From Candidatus Omnitrophota bacterium (GTDB taxonomy: Bacteria > Omnitrophota > Gorgyraeia > Gygaellales > Profunditerraquicolaceae): 64,000 nucleotides of DNA. A model generated the notes under the pieces. That model searched no databases. It was not told where the DNA came from and saw only the letters and a program-made list of their open reading frames with translations. Positions within the stretch are counted from its first letter, which is position 1, and the number at the start of each line of letters is the position of its first letter. The position numbers were made by a program, and so were the translations under genes. The DNA lies in assembly GCA_041651115.1 (NCBI GenBank), contig JBAZJY010000001.1, positions 69,165 to 133,164 on the forward strand, read 5' to 3'. Below, piece by piece: positions 13,221-59,919 of this stretch.

Positions 13221-13227
13221 TAAAAAC

Positions 13228-13345
13228 AATCTTCAGGGCAAGGTGAAATTCCTGACCGGCGGATAATGCCCGCGAGTCCCCTATAGGGGACAGATCCGGA
13301 GAGTTTCCGGAGCCGATAGCTATAGTCTAGATGGAAGAAGATAAA
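13228..13345 (+). promoter_or_regulatory. FMN riboswitch (RFN element) aptamer
   Basis: Matches the conserved RFN core (CTTCAGGGCAAGGTGAAATTCCTGACCGGCGG ... GATCCGGAGAGTTTCCGGAGCCGATAGCTATAGTCTAGATGGAAGAAGAT) and lies immediately 5' of ribBA. Confidence 0.85.
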
Positions 13346-13359
13346 AAATATTCATTTAT

Positions 13360-13407: not shown

Positions 13408-14607
13408 ATGGTATTTAACACCATTCCTGAAATATTAGAAGACCTGAAAAACGGCAAGATGGTTATTGTTGTTGATGATGCTGACCGGGAAAACGAGGGC
13501 GACCTGGTGATGCCTGCGTCTTTTGCCCGGGCAGAAGACATAAATTTTATGGCTAAGTTCGGCCGCGGCCTGATTTGCGTGCCTATGGAAGAAGAGAGGC
13601 TTGAGGCCCTTGATTTACAGTCAATGCTTGATGAGAAAGGCAGGGATCCTTTTTCCACTGCCTGGGTGATCTCGGTTGATGCGGCAAGCGGCATTACTAC
13701 CGGAATTTCAGCTTATGACCGGGCGCATACGATCGGCGTATTGATAAATCCCCAAAGTAAGCCGGAAAACCTGATTCGGCCGGGGCATGTGTTTCCTTTA
13801 AAAGCGCGCAAGGGCGGAGTATTGGTAAGGGCAGGCCATACCGAAGCAGCCGTGGACATGATGAAGTTGTCCGGTTTATACCCGGCAGGAGTGATCTGTG
13901 AGATTATGAATGAAGACGGCACAATGGCAAGGCTGCCTCAACTCATTGAATTTTCCCGCCGGCATAAACTTAAAATTTGTTCTATTGAAGACCTGATCGG
14001 GTTTCGCCGCCGCTCTGAAAAATTCGTGGAAAAATTATCCGAAACAGTCCTTCCTACGGACAGCGGCACGTTCAGGCTGATCCTATATAAAGACCTTACC
14101 AATGACCAGGAGCACGTTGTCCTGGCTATGGGAGATCTAAGCGGAGAAGGCGTGCTTGTGCGCGTGCATTCGGAATGCCTTACCGGAGACGTATTCGGTT
14201 CGCTGCGCTGTGACTGCGGCAGGCAATTGAAAAAAGCGATGCAAATGATAGAAAAAGAAGGCAAAGGAGTGATCCTTTATATGAATCAGGAAGGCTGCGG
14301 CATCGGGCTGGCGGATAAGATTAAGGCATATGCGCTTCAAGACGGCGGGCTTGATACGGTTGAGGCCAATGAAGCGTTGGGTTATAAGCCGGACTTGAGG
14401 GATTACGGCATAGGCGCCCAGATACTTGTGGACCTCGGCTTAAAAAATATCCGGCTCCTGACAAATAATCCGCGTAAGATCATCGGGCTTGAGGGCTATG
14501 GCCTGAAAGTTGTAGAACGGATGGCGCTGGAAATAGAGCCAAATCCGTCAAATTATAATTATCTAAGGACAAAGAAGGAGAAATTGGGGCATCAGTTAAA
14601 GATATAG
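13408..14607 (+). CDS. ribBA: Bifunctional 3,4-dihydroxy-2-butanone-4-phosphate synthase / GTP cyclohydrolase II
   Basis: A DHBP synthase N-terminal half (VVDDADRENEGDLV) and a GTP cyclohydrolase II C-terminal half (CDCGRQL zinc site). Confidence 0.9.
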   Translation: MVFNTIPEILEDLKNGKMVIVVDDADRENEGDLVMPASFARAEDINFMAKFGRGLICVPMEEERLEALDLQSMLDEKGRDPFSTAWVISVDAASGITTGISAYDRAHTIGVLINPQSKPENLIRPGHVFPLKARKGGVLVRAGHTEAAVDMMKLSGLYPAGVICEIMNEDGTMARLPQLIEFSRRHKLKICSIEDLIGFRRRSEKFVEKLSETVLPTDSGTFRLILYKDLTNDQEHVVLAMGDLSGEGVLVRVHSECLTGDVFGSLRCDCGRQLKKAMQMIEKEGKGVILYMNQEGCGIGLADKIKAYALQDGGLDTVEANEALGYKPDLRDYGIGAQILVDLGLKNIRLLTNNPRKIIGLEGYGLKVVERMALEIEPNPSNYNYLRTKKEKLGHQLKI

Positions 14608-18274: not shown

Positions 18275-18349
18275 CGGGGCGTGGCTCAGTTTGGCTAGAG
18301 CGCAGCGTTCGGGACGCTGAGGTCACAGGTTCAAGTCCTGTCGCCCCGA
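18275..18349 (+). tRNA. tRNA-Pro (anticodon CGG)
   Basis: A manual cloverleaf gives acceptor CGGGGCG/CGCCCCG, D arm GCTC/GAGC, anticodon stem CAGCG/CGCTG with loop TTCGGGA, T arm ACAGG-TTCAAGT-CCTGT, and discriminator A. No CCA is encoded. Confidence 0.85.
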
Positions 18350-28473: not shown

Positions 28474-29379
28474 ATGAAAATTATTTATGGGATCGAAAAG
28501 ATCGGGAAATTCAGCAAACCGGTAATTGCGCTGGGCGTGTTTGACGGCGTGCATTTAGGCCACAAGCATATCCTGCGGGCAGCCGTAAAAAAGGCGCGGG
28601 AAATAAACGGCACGAGCGTGGTCGTAACTTTTTACCCGCATCCGCAAAAAGAACAGAGCCTTTATTCTTTAGAGCATCGCTTAAGGCTGATCGCCGCTAT
28701 CGGCATAGATGCATGTATCGTAATTAATTTCAGCCCGGCTTTCGCGAAGATAAAGGCGGAAGATTTTATCAGGAAAATGATCTGCGGCAGGATCGGGGCG
28801 GCATTTATTTTTGTGGGGAAGAATTTCCGTTTCGGCTATCGCGCGGCAGGAAGCCGCCGGCTCCTGGAGAATTTAGCGCGGGAGTGCGGTTACAAGCTTA
28901 AGGTTTTCGCGGCAATAAAAACTAACCGCCGCCTGATCAGCAGCACGCGCATCCGCAGATTGATCACAATGGGCAGGCTGTCCACGGCGCAAAAACTGCT
29001 TACCCGCCCGGTAACTGTCCTCGGGACGGTAGTGAAGGGGATCTCGTTGGCGAGGAAAATAGGTTTTCCCACTGCCAATATCAATCCGCACCACGAAATA
29101 CTTCCGCCTTCGGGAGTATACGCGGTAAAAGTTTTCTTTGAAGGAAAAAATTTTAACGGCGTTTGTAACATCGGAAGAAAGCCGACAGTTACAGCCGGCC
29201 GCAAAGATAAACATGTGGAAGTTTACATTTTTAATTTTAACAGGAATATTTACGGTAAAGACTTGGAAATACGGTTTATCAAAAAAATAAGAGAAGAAGT
29301 GGAATTCCCCACGCTTAAGCATTTAGCCTGCCAAATCGCAAAAGACGTAAAAAAAGCCAAAATTATCCTGTCCGCGTAA
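28474..29379 (+). CDS. ribF: Bifunctional riboflavin kinase / FMN adenylyltransferase
   Basis: An FAD synthetase N-terminus (GVFDGVHLGHKHIL) and a riboflavin kinase C-terminus. Confidence 0.9.
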   Translation: MKIIYGIEKIGKFSKPVIALGVFDGVHLGHKHILRAAVKKAREINGTSVVVTFYPHPQKEQSLYSLEHRLRLIAAIGIDACIVINFSPAFAKIKAEDFIRKMICGRIGAAFIFVGKNFRFGYRAAGSRRLLENLARECGYKLKVFAAIKTNRRLISSTRIRRLITMGRLSTAQKLLTRPVTVLGTVVKGISLARKIGFPTANINPHHEILPPSGVYAVKVFFEGKNFNGVCNIGRKPTVTAGRKDKHVEVYIFNFNRNIYGKDLEIRFIKKIREEVEFPTLKHLACQIAKDVKKAKIILSA

Positions 29380-29462
29380 AGTTTACCCACCACAAGCTGT
29401 CCAAAATATCCGGGTTTTAGCCACAATATCTTGTGCCGCAATACTTTTTTAAATTATTTATC

Positions 29463-29491
29463 TTGACAAAAAGGGGGTGTTTTACTATAAT
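29463..29491 (+). promoter_or_regulatory. Sigma70 promoter (TTGACA-17-TATAAT) of the mraZ / division-cell-wall operon
   Basis: Consensus hexamers at 29463-29468 and 29486-29491. Confidence 0.7.
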
Positions 29492-29502
29492 CATGTCACG
29501 AT

Positions 29503-29526
29503 GTGGTTAAGAGTGGAGTAAAGTGG
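29503..29526 (+). promoter_or_regulatory. Putative MraZ operator: three GTGG repeats at 10-bp periodicity
   Basis: GTGG-N6-GTGG-N6-GTGG lies just downstream of the -10 element. MraZ is known to bind such direct repeats in its own promoter. Confidence 0.55.
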
Positions 29527-29564
29527 ATGAGGGCATAAACCGAATCCTACAGGAGTAAAACGCT

Positions 29565-30002
29565 ATGTTCTATGGCGAATATTCACATTCAATAGACCGT
29601 AAAGGCCGCCTTATTTTACCTGCCAAATTCCGCGAAGTTGCCAAGAATAACTTCATTGAAAAATTTTTTGTTACCCGTGGTTTAGATAAGTGCCTTTTTA
29701 TGTTTTCCGAGGAAGAATGGAAGACCCAGGAAAATAAATTTAAGGCGATCTCTTTTACCAAACAGGAAGGCAGGACGTTCAACCGCATCTATTTTTCCGG
29801 CGCGGCTGACGTTACTCCCGATAAGCAGGGGAGGATCCTTCTGCCGCAATACCTTAAGGATTTTGCCGCGATAAAAAAGGACGTGATCATCGTCGGCGTA
29901 TCTAACCGGATTGAGATCTGGGCAAGCACTGCGTGGGAGGATTTTTACGCCAACTCCCGCCAGTCGTTTGAAGGCATAGCTGAAAAGTTGATTGACAATT
30001 AG
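29565..30002 (+). CDS. mraZ: Transcriptional regulator MraZ
   Basis: Duplicated MraZ domains (DRKGRLILPAKFR ... DKQGRILLPQYLK). Confidence 0.9.
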   Translation: MFYGEYSHSIDRKGRLILPAKFREVAKNNFIEKFFVTRGLDKCLFMFSEEEWKTQENKFKAISFTKQEGRTFNRIYFSGAADVTPDKQGRILLPQYLKDFAAIKKDVIIVGVSNRIEIWASTAWEDFYANSRQSFEGIAEKLIDN

Positions 30003-30026: not shown

Positions 30027-30938
30027 ATGATCGGGTTGTTGAAAGTGGAAGAAAAATATCATATCCCCGTGATGTGCGGGGAAATCATAAATTACCTGAA
30101 CCTCGCGCCCGGGAAAAAAATAGTGGACGCGACGCTTGGTACGGCCGGCCACAGCATAGAAATACTCAAGCGGATATCGCCCGGAGGAAAACTTGTGGGC
30201 ATAGACCGCGATGAAGCGGCGATCAACGCCGCGCGGCAAAGGTTGGCCGATTACAGCGCAGCAGCAAATTTTTTTCACGGGAATTTTACGGATATTGATA
30301 AAGCGCTTAGCGCAGCCGGCATCGGCAAGGTTGACGGGATCATCTTTGACCTGGGCATATCAAGTATGCAGCTTGACGATCCGGAGCGCGGTTTTAGTTT
30401 TCAGAACGAGGGGCCGCTGGACATGCGCCTGGATAGGAATAGCTACATATCGGCCTATGACTTGGTGAACAATCTTAACGAAGACGAGCTCTCGGAGCTG
30501 CTTTGGAACTTCGGGCAGGAGAGGTGGCATAACCGTATTGCGCGTTACCTGGTAAAAGAAAGGGAGAAACACCCGATCTCTACCACTTTAGAATTAAGCG
30601 ACGCAGTAGTCAGGGCAATACCATATAGATACAGGCATTACCGGATCCATCCGGCAACAAGGACTTTTCAGGCAGTGCGCATCGCAGTCAACCGCGAATT
30701 GGAATCACTGCAGGCTGCTATCGGCAAGGCGGTTGAGTTTTTGGAAAAGAGCGGCCGGATTTGCGTAATATCTTTTCATTCTTTGGAAGACCGTATCGTG
30801 AAATTCAGTTTTCGCGAACTTGCGGCAAAAGGTCTATTAAAGATCATCACACCTAAGCCGTTGGAAGCTTCGGATGAAGAAAAGGCGCGTAATCCCAGGT
30901 CAAGGAGCGCCAAGCTAAGAGTAGCAGAGAGGTTATAG
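30027..30938 (+). CDS. rsmH: 16S rRNA (cytosine1402-N4)-methyltransferase
   Basis: MraW/RsmH family (HIPVM ... DATLGTAGHS ... DLGISSMQLD). Confidence 0.9.
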   Translation: MIGLLKVEEKYHIPVMCGEIINYLNLAPGKKIVDATLGTAGHSIEILKRISPGGKLVGIDRDEAAINAARQRLADYSAAANFFHGNFTDIDKALSAAGIGKVDGIIFDLGISSMQLDDPERGFSFQNEGPLDMRLDRNSYISAYDLVNNLNEDELSELLWNFGQERWHNRIARYLVKEREKHPISTTLELSDAVVRAIPYRYRHYRIHPATRTFQAVRIAVNRELESLQAAIGKAVEFLEKSGRICVISFHSLEDRIVKFSFRELAAKGLLKIITPKPLEASDEEKARNPRSRSAKLRVAERL

Positions 30939-54620: not shown

Positions 54621-54715
54621 ACCTTGAAAATCGGTAATTTTATGGTATATTTTAAGTAGATTTTTAGGAAAGCGTTTTCGCAGGAGGCGCGAAAGCGCGA
54701 TATACGGTTTGAATA

Positions 54716-54770
54716 AACCGGAATGCCACGGAAAAAGAAAGAGGGTTGGCTTCCGGATTTTTTATTTTTT
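54716..54770 (+). terminator. Candidate rho-independent terminator after rluD
   Basis: An imperfect stem (ACCGGAATGCC ... GGCTTCCGGAT) is followed by TTTTTTATTTTTT. Confidence 0.35.
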
Positions 54771-54812
54771 GATATTTAAAACTTTGATAAACAATTGAAG
54801 AAAGGGATAGCG

Positions 54813-57800
54813 ATGTTAAATAAAATAATATCCTTAGTCTTAAGCTTCGGCTTGCTCTTTCAGCAAATAAGCTTTGCGCAAATCGCCACAGAGTTAAACC
54901 TTTCAAATTACCTCTCTAAGATCAGCAGCAATATAATTCAGGAAAAATTCCGGCCTTTACACCTACGTTATTTCTCTTATGACAGCTTAAATGATAATTT
55001 TAAAATACTTCTTGATAAGGGTAGCGTAAAACAGCTGGATGATGTCAAGGCGCAGGAATCAGCTAAAACGCTATTAAGCTACTTTTTAATAGGGGTAACT
55101 CTTCCTGATGAAGCATTCTGGGTTAACTTAAGGCCTGACACAGAAGACCAGATCATAGACCCGTCTTTGGAGAAAACTGATGTCGGTAAGATTATGCTGG
55201 AAGCAGATCTCCAGCTTAAGAAAGACACTGCGCTTTTTACTTCTCCCAAGACTCCCGAAGGAAAAGAATACTGGAATAAGCTCTATAAGAAAGCGGGAGA
55301 GCTTTGCGGTAATGATAATGTTACCATTCCTACCTTAACCCGGCCCTGGATAGTCCCCGGGGAAATAATTGTCAGGGAAGCGAAAGATTCAGCTTATGTC
55401 TATAAAGCTACATTAAAGGTAATGTTAGAACAGGATTATCTTAAAGATTCCGCTACCTATAGCTTTAAAGATGAACGCTCTAAAGCGTTAAATGAATATT
55501 CTTCGCAGCTAATCCGAGAACTAATTATTCCTAAACTTACCAAAGAAGTAAATTCAAGCAAGAGGTATGCAGCCTTGCGTCAAGTTTACTATTCATTAAT
55601 TCTCTCCCGATGGTTTAAGCTGCGTTTTAGCGGCAAAACCGGCACCTACGCTTCATTGATCAATACTAAAAACCTTACCAACTTAGTTTCTCAAGAGGCT
55701 TGGTCAAAAACCGAATATTTTAAGCAATATAAAAAATCCTTTGCCGAGGGTGAATACAGCATCCAGGAGCCCGTTTATACCCCTACAGGGCAAGTTATCA
55801 GAAGCTACTTTAGCGGCGGCATAAATGTAGCCAGCAGCGCTATTAATACGCAGAATGGTGCTATCTTTTTAAATGATAATGCAAATAAACTGGGCGATGT
55901 CATTGGGGGTAGGGCGGTCCTTGATTTAAAAAGTATAAATCTAAAACCGATTGCCGTAAGCTCACCGATAACTAACCCAGACAAAGTTACAATCGAGTTC
56001 CCTATTGAGGAATGGTCTGCTTACGAAGATCAGTACGGACTTGGCTCTGGTCCAACTATTATTAACGCAGTGCCCTATGCTCTTTTAGAAGAAGTTAAAC
56101 GGAAATTCGGTAAGCAGGTTATTATTGATATATCAATATTTGATCATGAAAGTTCTACGGATGATTACGGAGGTTGGAAGGGATCATATAAAACAAAAAC
56201 AACATTGATTTTCTCCCAGGATATTGCCGATAAAATTAAAGAAGTAGTCAGAAAATATTATCCGAACGAATCTTTTAGTATTAGTTTACCTTTTCATTTA
56301 GATGAGGCTGCCATTTTAAGCTTTAAAACAACAGTCCTCAGTTTAGTAAAAAACAACCAACGAACATCGTTAGACAGCTTAATTGATTCTCTACCTCAAG
56401 GCTCCGCCGTAAGGAATGCTTTATTTAATTTAAAGCACCTCCATGGTAAGCCGACCGATGAAGCTGTTCAGCGAATAATTAAGGAAAATAATCTTAACGA
56501 CGCCGAACAGGCAGCTATTGTTCAGGTGCCTATTGTTTTACTAGCGCAGCCGGAAGTCACAATTGAATTACCTATCGATGAATGGTCTGGTAGTGAGGAT
56601 ATGTACGGGCTTGGTTATTCAACTCAGACGAACCCGATACCAAGAGGTTTTCTGGAGGAAATTAAAAGTAAATTTAGCAAGCAGGTTAGCATTGATCATG
56701 GAATATTTGATAGCGAAAATTCTGAAGATAATGTTGGGGGCTGGAAAGGTTCCTTTAAAACAAAAACAACATTGATTTTCTCCCAGGATATTGCCGATAA
56801 GGTTAAAGAAATATTCAGAAAATATTATCCTAACGAATCTTTTTTCGTTAGTTCGCCAATTAAAGATACTACAGAGGATAGCTCGCCGGTTTCTAAATTT
56901 GTAACTTTACCGGTAAACAAAGACGAGCAAGGTTTGGATTTTAGGGATGTTGAAAAAGCAATTGCGAGCGGAAGAATGGCGATTGCTGAAGTTTCGGTTG
57001 ATTGGGCAGAGAAAATAAAAAAGACTTTTCCTGATGAGGTTTATACTATTTTTATATCTCCTTTGAGCGAAGAACAAATTACAGAGCGTATGCGAAAGAA
57101 GGGTCAAGCGCGAGAGGCGGTTATTTTTGACGAGATGACAGGAAGACAGAGAGAGCGTGCCATAGAAAAACCAACGGATGAAAAGAAACAACTTGCACGC
57201 GCTCAAGCGTCAATTATAGAAATGTCTAGACAGAATGAATATGATATCGTTATTGTCAATAACGTATTAAAAGATTTAGAAAAAGATAATATTCGGTGGG
57301 CAGGTGAAGAGGGGGCTAAGGTAGTCTCGAAGTTTATGGGCGCTGTGGATAATGCCAGGAAGGATGGGAAAAAATTGATTCTGTATTCCGGCCCTTCTGC
57401 CACCGGGAAGAGCCCATTGTGGAACCAAATACAGCAGAGATATGGTGATCAATTTTCGCGTATTGTTCTTCATACAACACGCCCGATGCGAGACGGAGAA
57501 GAGAACGGAGTAGATTTTCATTTTTCTCCGGTTACAAAAGACCAAATTGAAAAAATCGGGATGGATTGGAATGACACTTCCAGTAAGCTTGTTAAAAATG
57601 GCTGGGCCCAGCAAGTAAGTCCAACAGAAGTAATTATGTTGACGAAAATAGAGAAAGAAAAAGATAAGGCGTTGGAAGCTTTTGGTGACAATCTCACGAA
57701 AATCTTACAGGCTCCTGTTGAGCAGTTAAAAGAGCTTGAGAAAAAAATTAATGCTTCTAGTCCTGTGTTAAACAGGGAGGATGATTTATATATTCCAACT

Positions 57801-58895
57801 TCTCAAGGTGAAGCCTATGATGCCGTAATGGCAACGTTAACTAAAATAAGAGGTACCCAGGAAAGTCACGGCTATCCGCTCTTTAAAACAAATATCGACA
57901 GAAATAAGGTGGAAGAGGCTTTTTCTGCTAAGAAAGCTACTCAAATAGGTTCGGTTCTTTACGGGTATGATACAGGTGATTATTCTACCGATTACGAAGT
58001 TACCGTTAATTTTAACGAGGCCAATATAACATTAACTTTTTTAAGCAGAGAAGAAAAATATAAATTAGAACGGCCTTTTAGCGAAGAGCGGGTAAGAGGA
58101 CAACTTTTTGCGATTCTTTGGAATATCGGTTGGGCCCACAAAAACATATCGTTTTCGGTTTCCGAAGAAATAGCGATTGATTCAGTAGAAAACCGCCATC
58201 TTCTTGCGGGGCCCGGTACGGATGATGAACATTACCAGGATGAGCCGGGCTATCAAGAACTGAGAGAAGCCTATGATGCAGTTATGGAAAAGATAAAATC
58301 TGCGACAGAAGCCAAGATCAATGAAATAATCAATTGGGTTAAGGAAAATCCGGAAATAAATTTCAAAATAGAAGAAGTTTATGTCCTTGGCGGAACCGGC
58401 CAGGAAGCAGGTATAGTCGGGCGCATTGACCGTGGTATTGCTGAAAAACTTGGACTTGCTTATGGAACGATCAATTTTTTAACGCAAGATATATCCAAGA
58501 AAACGGATAGAAAGAATAATAGCTCGCCGGTACGATCGATGTCCGGAAAAACAGGCGGTATTGATTTCCGTGCTTTACCGATGGCTATTCAGCCTATGGG
58601 GAGTTTTGGTAGTTTGAATTTTACGCTGCCTCAATTAAGCCAGGTGGAGCTTGAGAAAATAGATGTCGCTGCCGAGATACAACAGATCAAGAATATGGTG
58701 CAATCCGGGATTATCCCCTCCGGCGAACGAGTAAAATATCTTATTGCTGCTTGTGAACAAAAAGGGGAAATAAATTCTCAAGTGGACAACCTGTTGTTAT
58801 GCCTTACGGATATTTTTAAGCTGGAAGAAGAAAATGCTAGCGAGAGTTCTCCGGAATTAAGGGAAGCATTGGTAATTGTTGATATGCAGGCCTAA
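54813..58895 (+). CDS. Giant (about 1360 aa) secreted multi-domain repeat protein with guanylate-kinase-like P-loop segments; no confident family assignment
   Basis: The N-terminus looks like a signal peptide (MLNKIISLVLSFGLLFQQISFAQIA). Two roughly 105-aa internal repeats share stretches of identical DNA. GK-like motifs occur (GPSATGKS ... HTTRPMRDGEENGVDFHF; FISPLSEE ... YDIVIVNN). GC content is visibly lower than in neighbouring genes. ATG 54813 follows AAGGGA; the track ORF starts at TTG 54795. Confidence 0.75.
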   Translation: MLNKIISLVLSFGLLFQQISFAQIATELNLSNYLSKISSNIIQEKFRPLHLRYFSYDSLNDNFKILLDKGSVKQLDDVKAQESAKTLLSYFLIGVTLPDEAFWVNLRPDTEDQIIDPSLEKTDVGKIMLEADLQLKKDTALFTSPKTPEGKEYWNKLYKKAGELCGNDNVTIPTLTRPWIVPGEIIVREAKDSAYVYKATLKVMLEQDYLKDSATYSFKDERSKALNEYSSQLIRELIIPKLTKEVNSSKRYAALRQVYYSLILSRWFKLRFSGKTGTYASLINTKNLTNLVSQEAWSKTEYFKQYKKSFAEGEYSIQEPVYTPTGQVIRSYFSGGINVASSAINTQNGAIFLNDNANKLGDVIGGRAVLDLKSINLKPIAVSSPITNPDKVTIEFPIEEWSAYEDQYGLGSGPTIINAVPYALLEEVKRKFGKQVIIDISIFDHESSTDDYGGWKGSYKTKTTLIFSQDIADKIKEVVRKYYPNESFSISLPFHLDEAAILSFKTTVLSLVKNNQRTSLDSLIDSLPQGSAVRNALFNLKHLHGKPTDEAVQRIIKENNLNDAEQAAIVQVPIVLLAQPEVTIELPIDEWSGSEDMYGLGYSTQTNPIPRGFLEEIKSKFSKQVSIDHGIFDSENSEDNVGGWKGSFKTKTTLIFSQDIADKVKEIFRKYYPNESFFVSSPIKDTTEDSSPVSKFVTLPVNKDEQGLDFRDVEKAIASGRMAIAEVSVDWAEKIKKTFPDEVYTIFISPLSEEQITERMRKKGQAREAVIFDEMTGRQRERAIEKPTDEKKQLARAQASIIEMSRQNEYDIVIVNNVLKDLEKDNIRWAGEEGAKVVSKFMGAVDNARKDGKKLILYSGPSATGKSPLWNQIQQRYGDQFSRIVLHTTRPMRDGEENGVDFHFSPVTKDQIEKIGMDWNDTSSKLVKNGWAQQVSPTEVIMLTKIEKEKDKALEAFGDNLTKILQAPVEQLKELEKKINASSPVLNREDDLYIPTSQGEAYDAVMATLTKIRGTQESHGYPLFKTNIDRNKVEEAFSAKKATQIGSVLYGYDTGDYSTDYEVTVNFNEANITLTFLSREEKYKLERPFSEERVRGQLFAILWNIGWAHKNISFSVSEEIAIDSVENRHLLAGPGTDDEHYQDEPGYQELREAYDAVMEKIKSATEAKINEIINWVKENPEINFKIEEVYVLGGTGQEAGIVGRIDRGIAEKLGLAYGTINFLTQDISKKTDRKNNSSPVRSMSGKTGGIDFRALPMAIQPMGSFGSLNFTLPQLSQVELEKIDVAAEIQQIKNMVQSGIIPSGERVKYLIAACEQKGEINSQVDNLLLCLTDIFKLEEENASESSPELREALVIVDMQA

Positions 58896-58913
58896 AATAT
58901 TTTACTTTAAAAA

Positions 58914-58950
58914 GGGGACGTTTCCCGGTAGGGAAACGTCCCCTTTTTGT
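58914..58950 (+). terminator. Rho-independent, potentially bidirectional terminator after the giant gene
   Basis: A 13-bp perfect stem (GGGGACGTTTCCC-GGTA-GGGAAACGTCCCC) is flanked by AAAA upstream and TTTTTGTT downstream. Confidence 0.85.
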
Positions 58951-58970
58951 TGCACCATTTAAAATAACTC

Positions 58971-58998
58971 TTGATTTTTGGATAACCGATGTTATACT
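58971..58998 (+). promoter_or_regulatory. Candidate promoter (TTGATT-16-TATACT) for the coiled-coil gene and aroA
   Basis: Hexamers at 58971-58976 and 58993-58998. Confidence 0.4.
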
Positions 58999-59067
58999 AA
59001 CAACTTAAAGCATAACGAGTTGCGTTATAATCTTATCTATTCTTTTAAATGTAAAAGGAGGGCGGGA

Positions 59068-59919
59068 ATGAGTGAAAGGGCCAAAGTTCCTGTAGTATTG
59101 ATAATCGTGATCCTGGTCGCCGTACTTTCTTTAGGCGCGGCAGGAATGTTATTTTTATCTTTGCAGCAGGAAGTCATGAAAAGCACCGCCTTGCAGGAAG
59201 AGTTAAAGAGCACGAAAGAAATGCAAAAGATGCTCGAGAACAAGATGGAGGAAACAAAGAAAACCGTGCAAAACCTGGAGTCCAAGCTTAAAGATAACCT
59301 TTCACAAATTGAATCTTTATCCAGGGAATTACAGGCAGAGAGGTCGCAGAAGGAAGAGGCCTTAAGCCAGGTGAAAAATTTAAGGGCTGACTTGGAGCAG
59401 CAGCAGTCGCTGCGTTCCGACCTGGAAGGCAAGTTTATTAACGCGCAGGAACAGTTAAAAAATATGGACGCGCAATTAAGCGCTTTAGAAGGCAAGAAGG
59501 CCGAGCTGGAAGTAAAATTAAAGGAACTGGAAGAAAAGTCGCAGGGTGTTGAATTAGGCACGATAGTTGTCGCTCCGGAAACCCCGCCAGCCGCGGAAAA
59601 ACCAGCGCCGGCAAAAAAGGAACCGGCTAAAAAAGCCGCCAGGGCCGAGAAAAAGCAGAAAGCAGCGCCGGCGCCCGTATCCGGGATGGAAGGCAAGATC
59701 CTGGTAGTCAACAAGGATTATAATTTCGTAGTCATCAGCTTAGGCAGCAAAGACGGAATAAATATGGGCGATACATTCGCGCTTTACCACAACAATAAAT
59801 ATCTCGGGGACGCGAAAATCGAAAAGGTCCACGAGTCGATGTCCGCTGCCGGGCTTGTCAGCGAATCCTTGAAGAATAAAGTTGTTGAAGGCGATAAGGC
59901 CATCCGCAAAGAAAAATGA
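59068..59919 (+). CDS. Membrane-anchored coiled-coil protein with a Pro/Ala/Lys-rich linker and a conserved small C-terminal domain
   Basis: A TM helix (VVLIIVILVAVLSLGAAGMLFL), about 150 aa of heptad-like coiled coil, then a PAPAKKEPAKK linker and a C-terminal domain (GKILVVNKDYNFVVISLGSKDGINMGDTF). ATG 59068 follows a GGAGGG RBS. Confidence 0.6.
   Translation: MSERAKVPVVLIIVILVAVLSLGAAGMLFLSLQQEVMKSTALQEELKSTKEMQKMLENKMEETKKTVQNLESKLKDNLSQIESLSRELQAERSQKEEALSQVKNLRADLEQQQSLRSDLEGKFINAQEQLKNMDAQLSALEGKKAELEVKLKELEEKSQGVELGTIVVAPETPPAAEKPAPAKKEPAKKAARAEKKQKAAPAPVSGMEGKILVVNKDYNFVVISLGSKDGINMGDTFALYHNNKYLGDAKIEKVHESMSAAGLVSESLKNKVVEGDKAIRKEK

Follow-up and report, generated by a model that had tools for sequence, protein, structure and literature searches.

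Genomic Context and Origin of the Gene

This study concerns a single gene in a 64,000-nt stretch of DNA from a Candidatus Omnitrophota bacterium (assembly GCA_041651115.1, contig JBAZJY010000001.1, positions 69,165 to 133,164), referred to here as the window and described in an earlier note made from the sequence alone. The gene, an open reading frame (ORF) on the plus strand, would encode an exported protein and arrived through horizontal gene transfer; its product belongs to a large family in which two conserved end domains, the N-block and the C-block (together the bookends), enclose a variable insert. The longest frame (54795-58895) begins with TTG, while the ATG at 54813 gives a product of 1360 amino acids (aa), exactly the single ORF of about that size which had been proposed. 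This product is identical to the database entry 'hypothetical protein WC532_00635 [Candidatus Omnitrophota bacterium]', from a 647-kb contig of a metagenome-assembled genome (MAG). At 1360 aa, the protein does not deserve the epithet “giant” that the earlier note had given it.

In the hydropathy profile, residues 5-20 form the sole hydrophobic stretch of the protein, preceded by K4 and followed by S-F-A and then Q, and no transmembrane (TM)-like segment is seen beyond it. The predicted signal peptide reads MLNKIISLVLSFGLLFQQISFA, with Q as the next residue, and the [G/S/V]-F-A-Q site is kept in 102 of 120 homologues. The call is based on hydropathy and on the conservation of the cleavage site, and it agrees with the earlier description of a signal peptide with no TM anchor. 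The AT-richness and codon bias that had been judged by eye also proved real on calculation: the GC content of the gene is 0.398 (0.486±0.017 in the 50 other ORFs of the window), GC at third codon positions (GC3) is 0.366 (0.556±0.036 in the same ORFs; z = -5.3), and every module of the gene is GC-poor, with GC3 values of 0.27-0.42. An index resembling the codon adaptation index (CAI), with the other genes of the window as the reference set, is 0.664 as compared with 0.744±0.021 (minimum 0.693; z = -3.8), the lowest of the window genes. The same tendency is evident in single codons, with TTA making up 38% of leucine codons (18% in the other window genes), ATC 18% of isoleucine codons (47%) and CGC 10% of arginine codons (33%).

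Upstream of the gene lie ileS, a small ORF, lspA, lgt and rluD; downstream follow a gene for a 313-aa coiled-coil protein (58978-59919), which overlaps aroA, then aroA itself and mreB. The earlier placement between rluD and aroA was therefore right on the rluD side, but the immediate downstream neighbor is the coiled-coil gene and not aroA. For a comparison of synteny, 80 loci were fetched via AroA. About 25 Omnitrophota loci among these keep the order ileS-orf-lspA-lgt-rluD-coiled coil-aroA-mreB with rluD directly adjoining the coiled-coil gene, over a range of RluD identity from 76% down to 43%, so that the comparison of orthologous loci recommended in the earlier note finds related genomes in which the gene is absent. 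In the closest relative (L006), the spacer between rluD and the coiled-coil gene is intact and only 53 bp long, and this spacer with the coiled-coil promoter aligns to window positions ~58960-59030, to the right of the insert, which places the inserted segment at ~54621-58959. At its right end the gene is closed by the strong hairpin terminator that had been noted, with a perfect stem and U-run (58908-58949; dG -33.4 kcal/mol, z = -6.6).

Taken together, composition and synteny show that promoter, leader, ORF and terminator form one self-contained cassette, acquired horizontally from a lower-GC Omnitrophota lineage, and that its insertion point is between rluD and the coiled-coil/aroA unit; the horizontal acquisition suspected earlier is thus upheld by a foreign composition and by absence from the orthologous locus. 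A scenario without transfer would have the low GC reflect a family-intrinsic or expression-related codon bias, with losses elsewhere. Some members are indeed GC-poorer than their flanks (L003, z = -2.3; L004, z = -1.2), yet low GC as a family-wide trait is ruled out by a paralog in the same genome, P0096, which is compositionally native (GC3 0.521, equal to the 0.521 of its flanks). Losses would have to be many, independent and precise to account for the ~25 genomes lacking the gene, the empty site of L006 is an intact spacer, and the promoter and leader are shared with relatives in other genomes; we regard this scenario as highly improbable. As to the source, P0003, which carries the same kinase cargo, and P0010, whose N-block is 84% identical to that of the window protein (phmmer), sit in genomes of ~38-40% GC and match their background, while P0017 is a strong outlier in a genome of 45% GC (GC3 0.300 against 0.478±0.035). 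This pattern indicates that the subclade moves between Omnitrophota lineages, and the 38-40% GC genomes holding the closest relatives are a plausible donor pool within the phylum.

No mobility genes flank the window copy, so that the idea of a “cargo gene” of a mobile element finds no support at this locus. A search of 50,697 phage records for a phage origin gave 0 matches. A target-site duplication at the insert was considered and rejected, as the left-hand look-alike of the resident promoter turned out to be the promoter conserved within the family; the residual microhomology is only ~13 nt (AAAATAA.CTTGA). The relative P0010 (L086 1-15800) lies in an island which resembles a mobile defence island, with genes for a large serine recombinase, a CAP12/PCTIR TIR protein, a helix-turn-helix (HTH) protein, a DEAD helicase, an SMC-like ATPase, a Dnd-associated protein and a radical SAM enzyme, two PLD-like genes and an Imm-NTF2-2 gene. 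The rluD/coiled-coil junction carries unrelated insertions in other Omnitrophota and may be a recurrent integration site: a cluster of PMT_2, GT2, three radical-SAM and DUF362 genes in L022 (635-9140), genes for TPR, ECF sigma and zf-HC2 anti-sigma proteins in L042 (4231-8586), and a further region in L029 (515-2330).

A Family with Conserved Ends and a Variable Middle

The N-block was used as the query for an exhaustive phmmer search against 1.84 billion cluster representatives, which gave 7,435 matches at E <= 1e-3 and 5,383 at E <= 1e-30. By this measure the family comprises at least 5,383 protein clusters (representatives at 50% identity), and the earlier assignment of the protein to an “unknown family” was mistaken, given both this number and a recognizable Guanylate_kin match. 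Among 119 matches, the first ~340 aa are common to all 119 (54-84% BLASTP identity over the N-block) and the last ~120 aa to 114, while the ~900 aa in the middle of the window protein are common to only 0-13. The positions are constant too: across 120 proteins, the N-block never departs from the N-terminus and the C-block stops 0-28 aa short of the C-terminus, and in nearly all of 150 listed representatives the N-block starts at residues 1-27. Although these representatives are less than 50% identical overall, their N-blocks share 64-84% identity with the query among the listed matches.

Proteins matching the N-block are from 410 aa (fragments) to 6,439 aa long, with family members proper spanning 537-6,439 aa and having no TM helices besides the signal peptide. 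The C-block motif stands at the C-terminus in 170 of 207 sequences, the 6,439-aa member included, and most of the others are short and probably truncated ORFs. Inserts between the bookends range from 77 to more than 5,900 aa. In the near-empty carrier P0131 (537 aa), a linker of 77 aa is all that separates the bookends. The shortest inserts show no relationship among themselves, so that the family has no default cargo. The layout of the family, as read from these sequences, is a cleavable Sec signal peptide, the N-block, a variable insert, a GGIDFR motif and a C-terminal helical bundle. Several copies occur per genome, and in the contexts inspected the genes stand singly among unrelated housekeeping genes, with no conserved neighbors.

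When the complete protein and its individual modules were compared with Pfam, NCBIfam, PADLOC and PHROGs, guanylate kinase was the only match, and a sequence search of the PDB with the N-block and the repeat region gave a best E-value of 0.17. Neither bookend matches a Pfam family or a solved structure; in structural models the N-block is predicted to be α+β and the C-block helical, both of unknown fold. No description of the bookend family was found in the Omnitrophota literature searched. The folds of the two bookends, the motifs at the junctions and the leader RNA are all without known relatives.

Anatomy of the Window Protein

The modules of the window protein and the signals around it are collected in Table 1. 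The N-block follows directly on the signal peptide and has ~314 aa. Repeats 1 and 2, of ~100 aa each, share 67% identity, and nothing like them occurs among the other 119 listed hits; this one internal duplication (aa 391-494 and 581-683) is what stands of the earlier “repeat protein”. The helical module between the repeats (aa 495-580) is present twice in P0002, and no Pfam or PDB match was found for cargo modules 1-3. The ~250-aa module 5 is common to six relatives, one of which otherwise carries PGM and Nudix modules. The conserved C-terminal region (aa ~1248-1360) comprises the GGIDFR segment and, in the model, a five-helix bundle. The C-terminal alignment model was built from trimmed fragments, as full-length MAFFT misplaced module 4 on other N-blocks.

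Table 1. Features of the inserted segment and its right-hand border, in window coordinates (pLDDT, predicted local distance difference test).
Feature	Position	Strand	Basis
Inserted segment with its own promoter, leader, ORF and terminator	54621..58959	+	Lies between rluD stop and retained coiled-coil promoter; L006 alignment
Promoter-like site TTGAAA-16 nt-TATATT, TG before second hexamer	54624..54651	+	Top scan score, 10 of 12
Leader hairpin 1: GCGUUUUCGC / loop AGGAGGC / GCGAAAGCGC, GGAGG of the loop invariant	54672..54698	+	Folding and 8-locus consensus
Leader hairpin 2 (CCGGAAUGCCAC...GUUGGCUUCCGG) and U-run, resembling an intrinsic terminator	54718..54770	+	Folding, consensus, covariance model R2
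ORF, 1360 aa and stop	54813..58895	+	Identity to MAG protein WC532_00635
Predicted Sec-type signal peptide, aa 1-22, cleavage between SFA and Q	54813..54878	+	Hydropathy and conserved [GSV]FA-Q site
N-block, aa 23-336, N-terminal bookend, ends in invariant SYFSGG	54879..55820	+	
Disordered linker, aa 337-390, first SSP[VI] at aa 383	55821..55982	+	pLDDT <50 beginning at residue 335
Cargo modules 1-3: repeat 1 (aa 391-494), helical (aa 495-580), repeat 2 (aa 581-683)	55983..56861	+	
Cargo module 4: circularly permuted guanylate-kinase-fold P-loop kinase, aa 694-981	56892..57755	+	Pfam, NCBIfam and PDB alignments
Cargo module 5: α/β domain, aa 986-1236	57768..58520	+	
Junction, aa 1237-1276: SSPV, then strictly conserved GGIDFRALPMxIQPMGSF	58521..58640	+	pLDDT 41-52
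C-block helical bundle, aa 1277-1360, C-terminal bookend	58641..58892	+	
Intrinsic terminator of the inserted gene	58908..58949	+	19-bp perfect stem, then UUUUUG
Resident promoter of the coiled-coil/aroA unit, TTGATT-16-TATACT	58971..58998	+	Promoter scan and L006 empty-site alignment

A Permuted Guanylate-Kinase Fold

The one module of the window protein with a recognizable relative is module 4. It matches PF00625 with 65.8 bits (domain cut-off 25.2 bits), and reaches 78.2 bits against the NCBIfam Gmk equivalog TIGR03263, whose cut-off is 160.45. The order of the match is reversed, profile positions ~82-173 falling on aa 707-821 and positions 2-61 on aa 854-914, and guanylate kinases in the PDB align in the same reversed order (residues ~90-190, then ~4-80). 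The half with the core and LID (aa ~700-830) thus stands before the half with the P-loop and the nucleoside monophosphate (NMP)-binding region (aa ~853-930), in place of the collinear Gmk order of P-loop, NMP-binding region and core/LID.

The module was de-permuted and aligned to yeast and E. coli Gmk, two reference sequences with which the PDB alignments agree over the stretches that these cover. The P-loop GPSATGKS and the TTRxxRxGE motif are kept, as are R38, R41 and E44. A different picture emerges for S34, Y50, E69, Y78, S80 and D100 of the yeast enzyme, which we take to be the residues for recognition of guanine and GMP; the residue roles in yeast guanylate kinase were reportedly worked out by Stehle and Schulz in 1992. 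The window copy has the substitutions S34L, Y50F, E69T, Y78Q, S80L and D100S, and all of these with the exception of Y50F occur in all six family copies. In addition, the LID carries a 19-aa Arg-rich insertion, and its residues R135 and R146 are not conserved. The permuted order and the loss of the guanine-binding residues argue that module 4 is not a housekeeping Gmk, which answers the earlier concern that clear homology to a housekeeping family might explain the gene; from the residues kept and lost, it would be either a kinase of new specificity or a nucleotide-binding module.

Cargo across the Family

Other family members carry a wide range of recognizable cargo. Enzymes of glycolysis and gluconeogenesis are represented by PGK, GAPDH, enolase, TPI, cupin-type GPI, phosphoglucomutase, iPGM, FBP aldolase/phosphatase and PPDK/PEP synthase, and enzymes of nucleotide metabolism by adenylate and guanylate kinase folds, Nudix and HD domains. 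Further cofactor-dependent cargo includes GNAT domains, S-adenosylmethionine (SAM) methyltransferases, ROK kinase, NAD-epimerase and dehydroquinate synthase, and regulatory or binding cargo comprises J-domain, REC, FHA, MraZ, HEAT and TPR modules. In the members inspected for them, catalytic signatures are intact in GAPDH (ASCTTN), enolase (SHRSGET), TPI (AYEPVWAIGTG), phosphohexomutase (TASHNP) and PPDK (GGRTSHAA), and likewise the HPD of the J-domain. Going by these signatures, the payloads are of cytoplasmic type and probably active. Cargo modules recur in differing combinations among members, and P0127 holds GAPDH, PGK and TPI on one chain.

In the PGK-GAPDH member of L003 (10001-15472), the N- and C-blocks have the GC3 of the host (0.48-0.49) and the cargo has 0.35, native bookends around GC-poor cargo being the pattern that an exchange of cargo through recombination between the bookends would leave. 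The domains PF26216 and PF26217 occur on some family cargo (P0005, P0006, P0008, P0013, P0016 and P0022). Several long fusions with a signal peptide are labeled 'phosphoglycerate kinase', 'phosphoenolpyruvate synthase', 'triose-phosphate isomerase' or 'glucose-6-phosphate isomerase' by NCBI and JGI.

Junction Motifs and Homologs in Streptomyces

Two short motifs mark the borders of the modules. SSP[VI] stands at five module borders of the window protein (aa 383, 680, 690, 982 and 1237) and occurs 132 times in 120 family proteins, where ~5 would be expected. Its conservation is at the protein level and not at the DNA level: the five sites in the window differ in codons, which rules out a DNA-level recombination joint. 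The other motif, GGxDF, was illuminated by distant homologs. In a tblastn search of plasmids with the N-block, matches came from six large plasmids of Streptomyces (31-33% identity, E-values as low as 2e-42), and pairwise BLASTP of the N-block with a Streptomyces homolog gave E = 2e-48 over 299 residues. The homolog loci include L168 5864-8185 (NZ_CP023408.1) and L169 5696-7975 (NZ_CP108712.1), and the two proteins compared, of 773 and 759 aa, are annotated as hypothetical. They begin with a signal peptide, a domain of ~300 aa that carries an H[S]E...(P)CxxC motif, GG[IV]DF and the N-block-like domain, after which come GG[IV]D[FL], a linker, a C-terminal TM helix and a basic tail. The H[S]E...(P)CxxC motif of their N-terminal domains resembles that of deaminases, an identity that neither profile nor PDB searches confirmed. 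Here too, the N-block-like domain is fused to an enzyme-like passenger, and the signal peptide together with the C-terminal TM anchor places the N-block fold outside the cytoplasm in a second phylum.

In Streptomyces, GGxDF directly precedes the first strand of the N-block-like domain; in Omnitrophota, the same motif opens the C-block. The Omnitrophota N-block ends in a degenerate copy, SYFSGG-[IMLV]-[DN]-[LVF], and the C-block opens with the strict GGIDFR, so that the cargo is bracketed by the motif. There are two readings, which are not exclusive of each other. By analogy with the Streptomyces proteins, the GGIDFR strand may fold back on the N-block, making the bookends one unit with the cargo looped out; docking of this kind would account for the disorder of the segment when it is modelled without the N-block. 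Alternatively, or in addition, the junction between GG and xDF and the SSP[VI] motifs could be processing sites.

A Structured Leader RNA

The ORF is preceded by a spacer of 192 nt. It is AT-rich, as the earlier note had it, but it is not the mere spacer implied there, as it contains a conserved promoter and a structured leader. The window promoter aligns with sequence upstream of family genes in other genomes (L086, L087 and L004), and the leader, which we call class A, aligns with seven other loci. Its hairpin 2 element ends 43 nt upstream of the ATG and contains an invariant UGCCACGG at 54724-54731. For a broader leader search, 80 family loci (L088-L167) were picked by protein similarity alone, and leaders were found in them ~60-190 nt upstream of family gene starts. 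A second and clearer type, class B, has the order AAUCCGG-UAG-[GGAGG-loop hairpin]-UUGCCACGGUAA-...-terminator, and its 5' segment is complementary to the 5' arm of the terminator.

Covariance models were made from six class-B leaders (R1) and from the class A of the window (R2). In 0.58 Mb of family loci, R1 gave 20 plus-strand matches scoring 27-107 bits, each directly upstream of the family gene, and a best score of 22.9 bits in 1.09 Mb of control loci. R2 detects leaders outside its seed and also class-B leaders at the same position upstream of family genes, and found nothing in the 1.09 Mb of control DNA. With both models together, a leader is found in 31 of 84 family sources, and it is therefore not universal in the family. 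In 18 sequences, 95.2% of cells are paired and 12 of 24 pairs show double changes (44 cells); none of 500 shuffles matched the observed pairing score, and slid registers collapse. By these comparisons, the leader is a conserved structured RNA specific to the family. Being family-specific, strongly covarying and absent from Rfam 15, it is also a candidate for a new attenuator or riboswitch-like RNA with two architectural classes. The layout of promoter, structure and terminator argues for control by premature termination. Such an RNA would share with terminator-based riboswitches and protein-dependent attenuators the promoter, the covarying structured leader and the intrinsic terminator just upstream of the ORF, but it differs from the terminator-based riboswitches in belonging to no Rfam 15 family and in having an antiterminator pairing that does not covary. 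A known riboswitch was considered and rejected: the best match in Rfam 15 had an E-value of 0.79, and all were far below the gathering score. The GGA-containing hairpin loop could equally be a site for a CsrA-type protein. In L095 (991-1137), a near-threshold match to the c-di-GMP-I riboswitch (34.2 bits, gathering score 35) lies ~1.4 kb upstream of the family gene and is separate from the family leader.

Possible Functions of the Family

We suggest, tentatively and with a confidence that stays somewhat below an even chance, that the protein is an exported carrier whose payload is delivered into a partner cell. The protein would be exported by Sec, and the two bookends would form a common carrier, targeting or anchoring device, in which the GGIDFR strand of the C-block probably returns to complete or dock on the N-block fold. 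The insert would be a swappable payload of enzymes that need cytoplasmic cofactors, acting as metabolic effectors of a parasitic or predatory nanobacterium once in the cytoplasm of an attached cell, be it host or prey, and the SSP[VI] linkers and GG-x-D-F junctions may be sites at which modules are released. In the window protein, the payload would be a guanylate-kinase-fold P-loop kinase that no longer recognizes guanine, together with two modules of unknown kind. Premature termination in the leader is probably the gate on expression, to be opened by a ligand or a protein (a metabolite or a GGA binder of the CsrA type). This reading is ranked first on the grounds that the payloads, needing ATP, NAD, SAM, acetyl-CoA, Hsp70 or DNA, make biochemical sense only inside a cytoplasm, and that Omnitrophota have been proposed to be host-dependent or predatory (PMC10066038). 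Sec export, the function of the bookends as a carrier and the place where the cargo ends up are all steps that we infer. A bolder version can be drawn, in which a thousands-strong, phylum-wide metabolic effector system moves intact enzymes into host or prey by a two-part carrier and rewires their metabolism, with cassettes exchanged between the bookends and spread as promoter-leader-ORF units under a new riboswitch-like leader, and with the window gene as a recent member bearing a re-specified permuted kinase; as a whole, we consider this scenario unlikely.

Several points weigh against delivery and its regulation as just described, and the interpretation should be treated with caution. Localization is read from hydropathy and the conservation of the cleavage site, the term carrier from an architecture whose bookend folds match nothing, and the docking of GGIDFR onto the N-block from the domain order in Streptomyces. 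The membrane-anchored Streptomyces homologs would fit surface display at least as well as delivery, and in six inspected contexts no secretion, injection or immunity genes were linked to family members. The guanylate-kinase-fold module may be catalytically dead, given that R135 and R146 are not conserved and that the window copy has Y50F. As for the leader, the antiterminator AAUCCGG:CCGGAUU is pairable in 86% of cells and shows no covariation, and the class-A leader of the window has no obvious alternative fold.

Some of these points favor a scaffold that is exported but stays tethered to the surface or periplasm of the Omnitrophota cell, with the C-block as its anchor, where it would process sugar phosphates and nucleotides from lysed or leaky prey before uptake. 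Such a scaffold would have the signal peptide, would explain why no injection machinery is linked to the inspected genes, and is in keeping with the extracellular pre-processing of sugars proposed by West-Roberts et al. for the same enzyme types; the C-terminal TM anchor of the Streptomyces proteins, moreover, stands at the place of the C-block, suggesting an anchoring role. We nevertheless find tethering somewhat unlikely. The C-block has no hydrophobic or lipid-anchor feature, and the cofactor demands that argue for a cytoplasm (ATP, NAD, SAM and acetyl-CoA for the enzymes, Hsp70 for the J-domain, DNA for MraZ, a kinase for REC) argue equally against work at the cell surface. The same demands would be satisfied in the organism's own cytoplasm if the N-terminal segment were an uncleaved anchor, or a misread feature, and the bookends organized glycolytic and nucleotide enzymes as a metabolon along the membrane of an ultra-small cell. 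A cargo fit for just this compartment, down to chains that combine successive steps of glycolysis, would suit this arrangement, as would the annotation of some family ORFs as the organism's PGK or PEP synthase, and West-Roberts et al. themselves doubted the extracellular prediction. We think it distinctly unlikely, given that the h-region of ~12-16 residues, with a basic residue before it and small-x-A and then Q after it, has the geometry of a signal peptide (N-in), that the Streptomyces homologs place the domain between signal peptide and C-terminal anchor, i.e., outside, and that the kinase module of the window cannot be a housekeeping Gmk.

The least probable of the functional readings by a wide measure, and one we can barely credit, is a polymorphic toxin for interbacterial antagonism, with an N-terminal trafficking domain and a variable toxin such as a kinase that depletes nucleotide pools. 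A conserved N-terminus (64-84% identity) with a hypervariable remainder is a hallmark of these toxins, the island around P0010 contains Imm-NTF2-2, PLD and recombinase genes, and the Streptomyces H[S]E...CxxC motif recalls deaminase toxins, though no profile confirms it. Yet the variable part is internal and the C-terminus is a conserved block, neither the window gene nor the family genes of L001, L003, L004 and L087 have a small immunity-like ORF behind them, PADLOC finds nothing, and most recognizable cargo consists of intact enzymes of central metabolism. Of the three roles that the earlier note had offered, toxin, effector or surface protein, the toxin has accordingly become the least likely with a payload that is mostly metabolic, while effector and surface protein both remain as readings.

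Comparison with Known Systems

The closest conceptual match to bookends with a swappable payload and linker motifs is found in the MARTX (multifunctional-autoprocessing RTX) toxins of Vibrio and others, in which conserved ends flank a strain-variable array of effectors that are released by cleavage of linkers. MARTX toxins have glycine-rich repeats, a C-terminal type I secretion system (T1SS) signal and a cysteine protease domain, and are not known to carry a Sec signal. There is no similarity in sequence or fold, and the window protein has instead a Sec signal and a metabolic payload; Pfam and NCBIfam scans found no RTX-type repeats, cysteine protease domain or T1SS signal in it, and no protease was identified. 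With the polymorphic toxin systems (Rhs, CDI, LXG, MafB), the family shares a conserved N-terminus, a hypervariable remainder, several paralogs per genome, module exchange and horizontal spread, but differs in its internal variable part and in a payload mostly of housekeeping-type enzymes. A cognate immunity gene is also absent: after the terminator comes the coiled-coil gene, a resident that every syntenic genome lacking the insert also has.

Cargo of the type IX secretion system (T9SS) likewise combines a Sec signal peptide, variable domains and a conserved domain at the extreme C-terminus. The C-terminal domain of T9SS cargo, found in Bacteroidota, is a β-sandwich of ~80-100 aa. The C-block is, by contrast, all-helical in the model after the GGIDFR segment, there is an additional N-block of 314 aa, and no Pfam or NCBIfam match to Por_Secre_tail was found in the window protein. 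With Gmk and the guanylate kinase (GK) domains of MAGUK proteins, module 4 shares the PF00625 match, and its nucleotide-recognition residues are replaced as in MAGUK GK domains; it differs from Gmk in its circular permutation, lost guanine-binding residues and 19-aa LID insertion, and from MAGUK GK domains, which lose the P-loop, in keeping it.

The closest described biology is that of the “Archaeovorins” of the same phylum, giant Omnitrophota proteins that exceed 30,000 aa and contain numerous TM helices as well as SecA-like domains and N-terminal C39 or S8 peptidases, in which TPI, GPI, FBPase, PGM, aldolase, PPDK, Nudix, HEAT, TPR and radical-SAM domains are predicted to be extracellular and for which post-translational cleavage into several products has been proposed (West-Roberts et al. 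2023, bioRxiv 10.1101/2023.11.21.568195). The likeness, cytoplasmic-type enzymes behind signal peptides, holds at the level of the family, the window copy having a kinase-fold module. The window protein itself, with 1360 aa and no hydrophobic segment after the signal peptide, falls outside the Archaeovorins in size and TM content, and the paper that describes them (bioRxiv 10.1101/2023.11.21.568195) does not describe the N- and C-blocks. A eukaryotic precedent for the logic of a metabolic effector is provided by microsporidia, which are reported to secrete hexokinases, cytosolic glycolytic enzymes with a signal peptide that are exported to the host interface (PMC6460350); these are single enzymes with no carrier domains.

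Implications

A very large unnamed family with two domains lacking a Pfam model or structural relative invites structural and cell-biological work in a phylum without a cultured isolate. The bookend proteins, smaller than the giant proteins, lacking TM helices and having a clean topology, could be a more tractable form of the same puzzle, and the Streptomyces homologs would offer a genetically tractable entry to the function of the N-block. Reconstructions of Omnitrophota pathways may be counting exported fusions as cytoplasmic glycolysis. The family-specific leader is a candidate for a new class of cis-regulatory RNA, and the permuted kinase, having apparently lost its guanine specificity, could serve as a natural case of circular permutation with re-specification.

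Other Features of the Window

Three further observations in the window concern regions away from the gene. A second and smaller dip in GC, to 0.426, occurs at 29001-30000, in an ORF-poor stretch between the ORFs at 28474-29379 and 30027-30938. One tRNA gene is found at 18275-18349 (Rfam RF00005, 64.8 bits). An FMN riboswitch (RF00050, 105.8 bits), unrelated to the gene, lies at 13225-13346, upstream of the ORF at 13408-14607.

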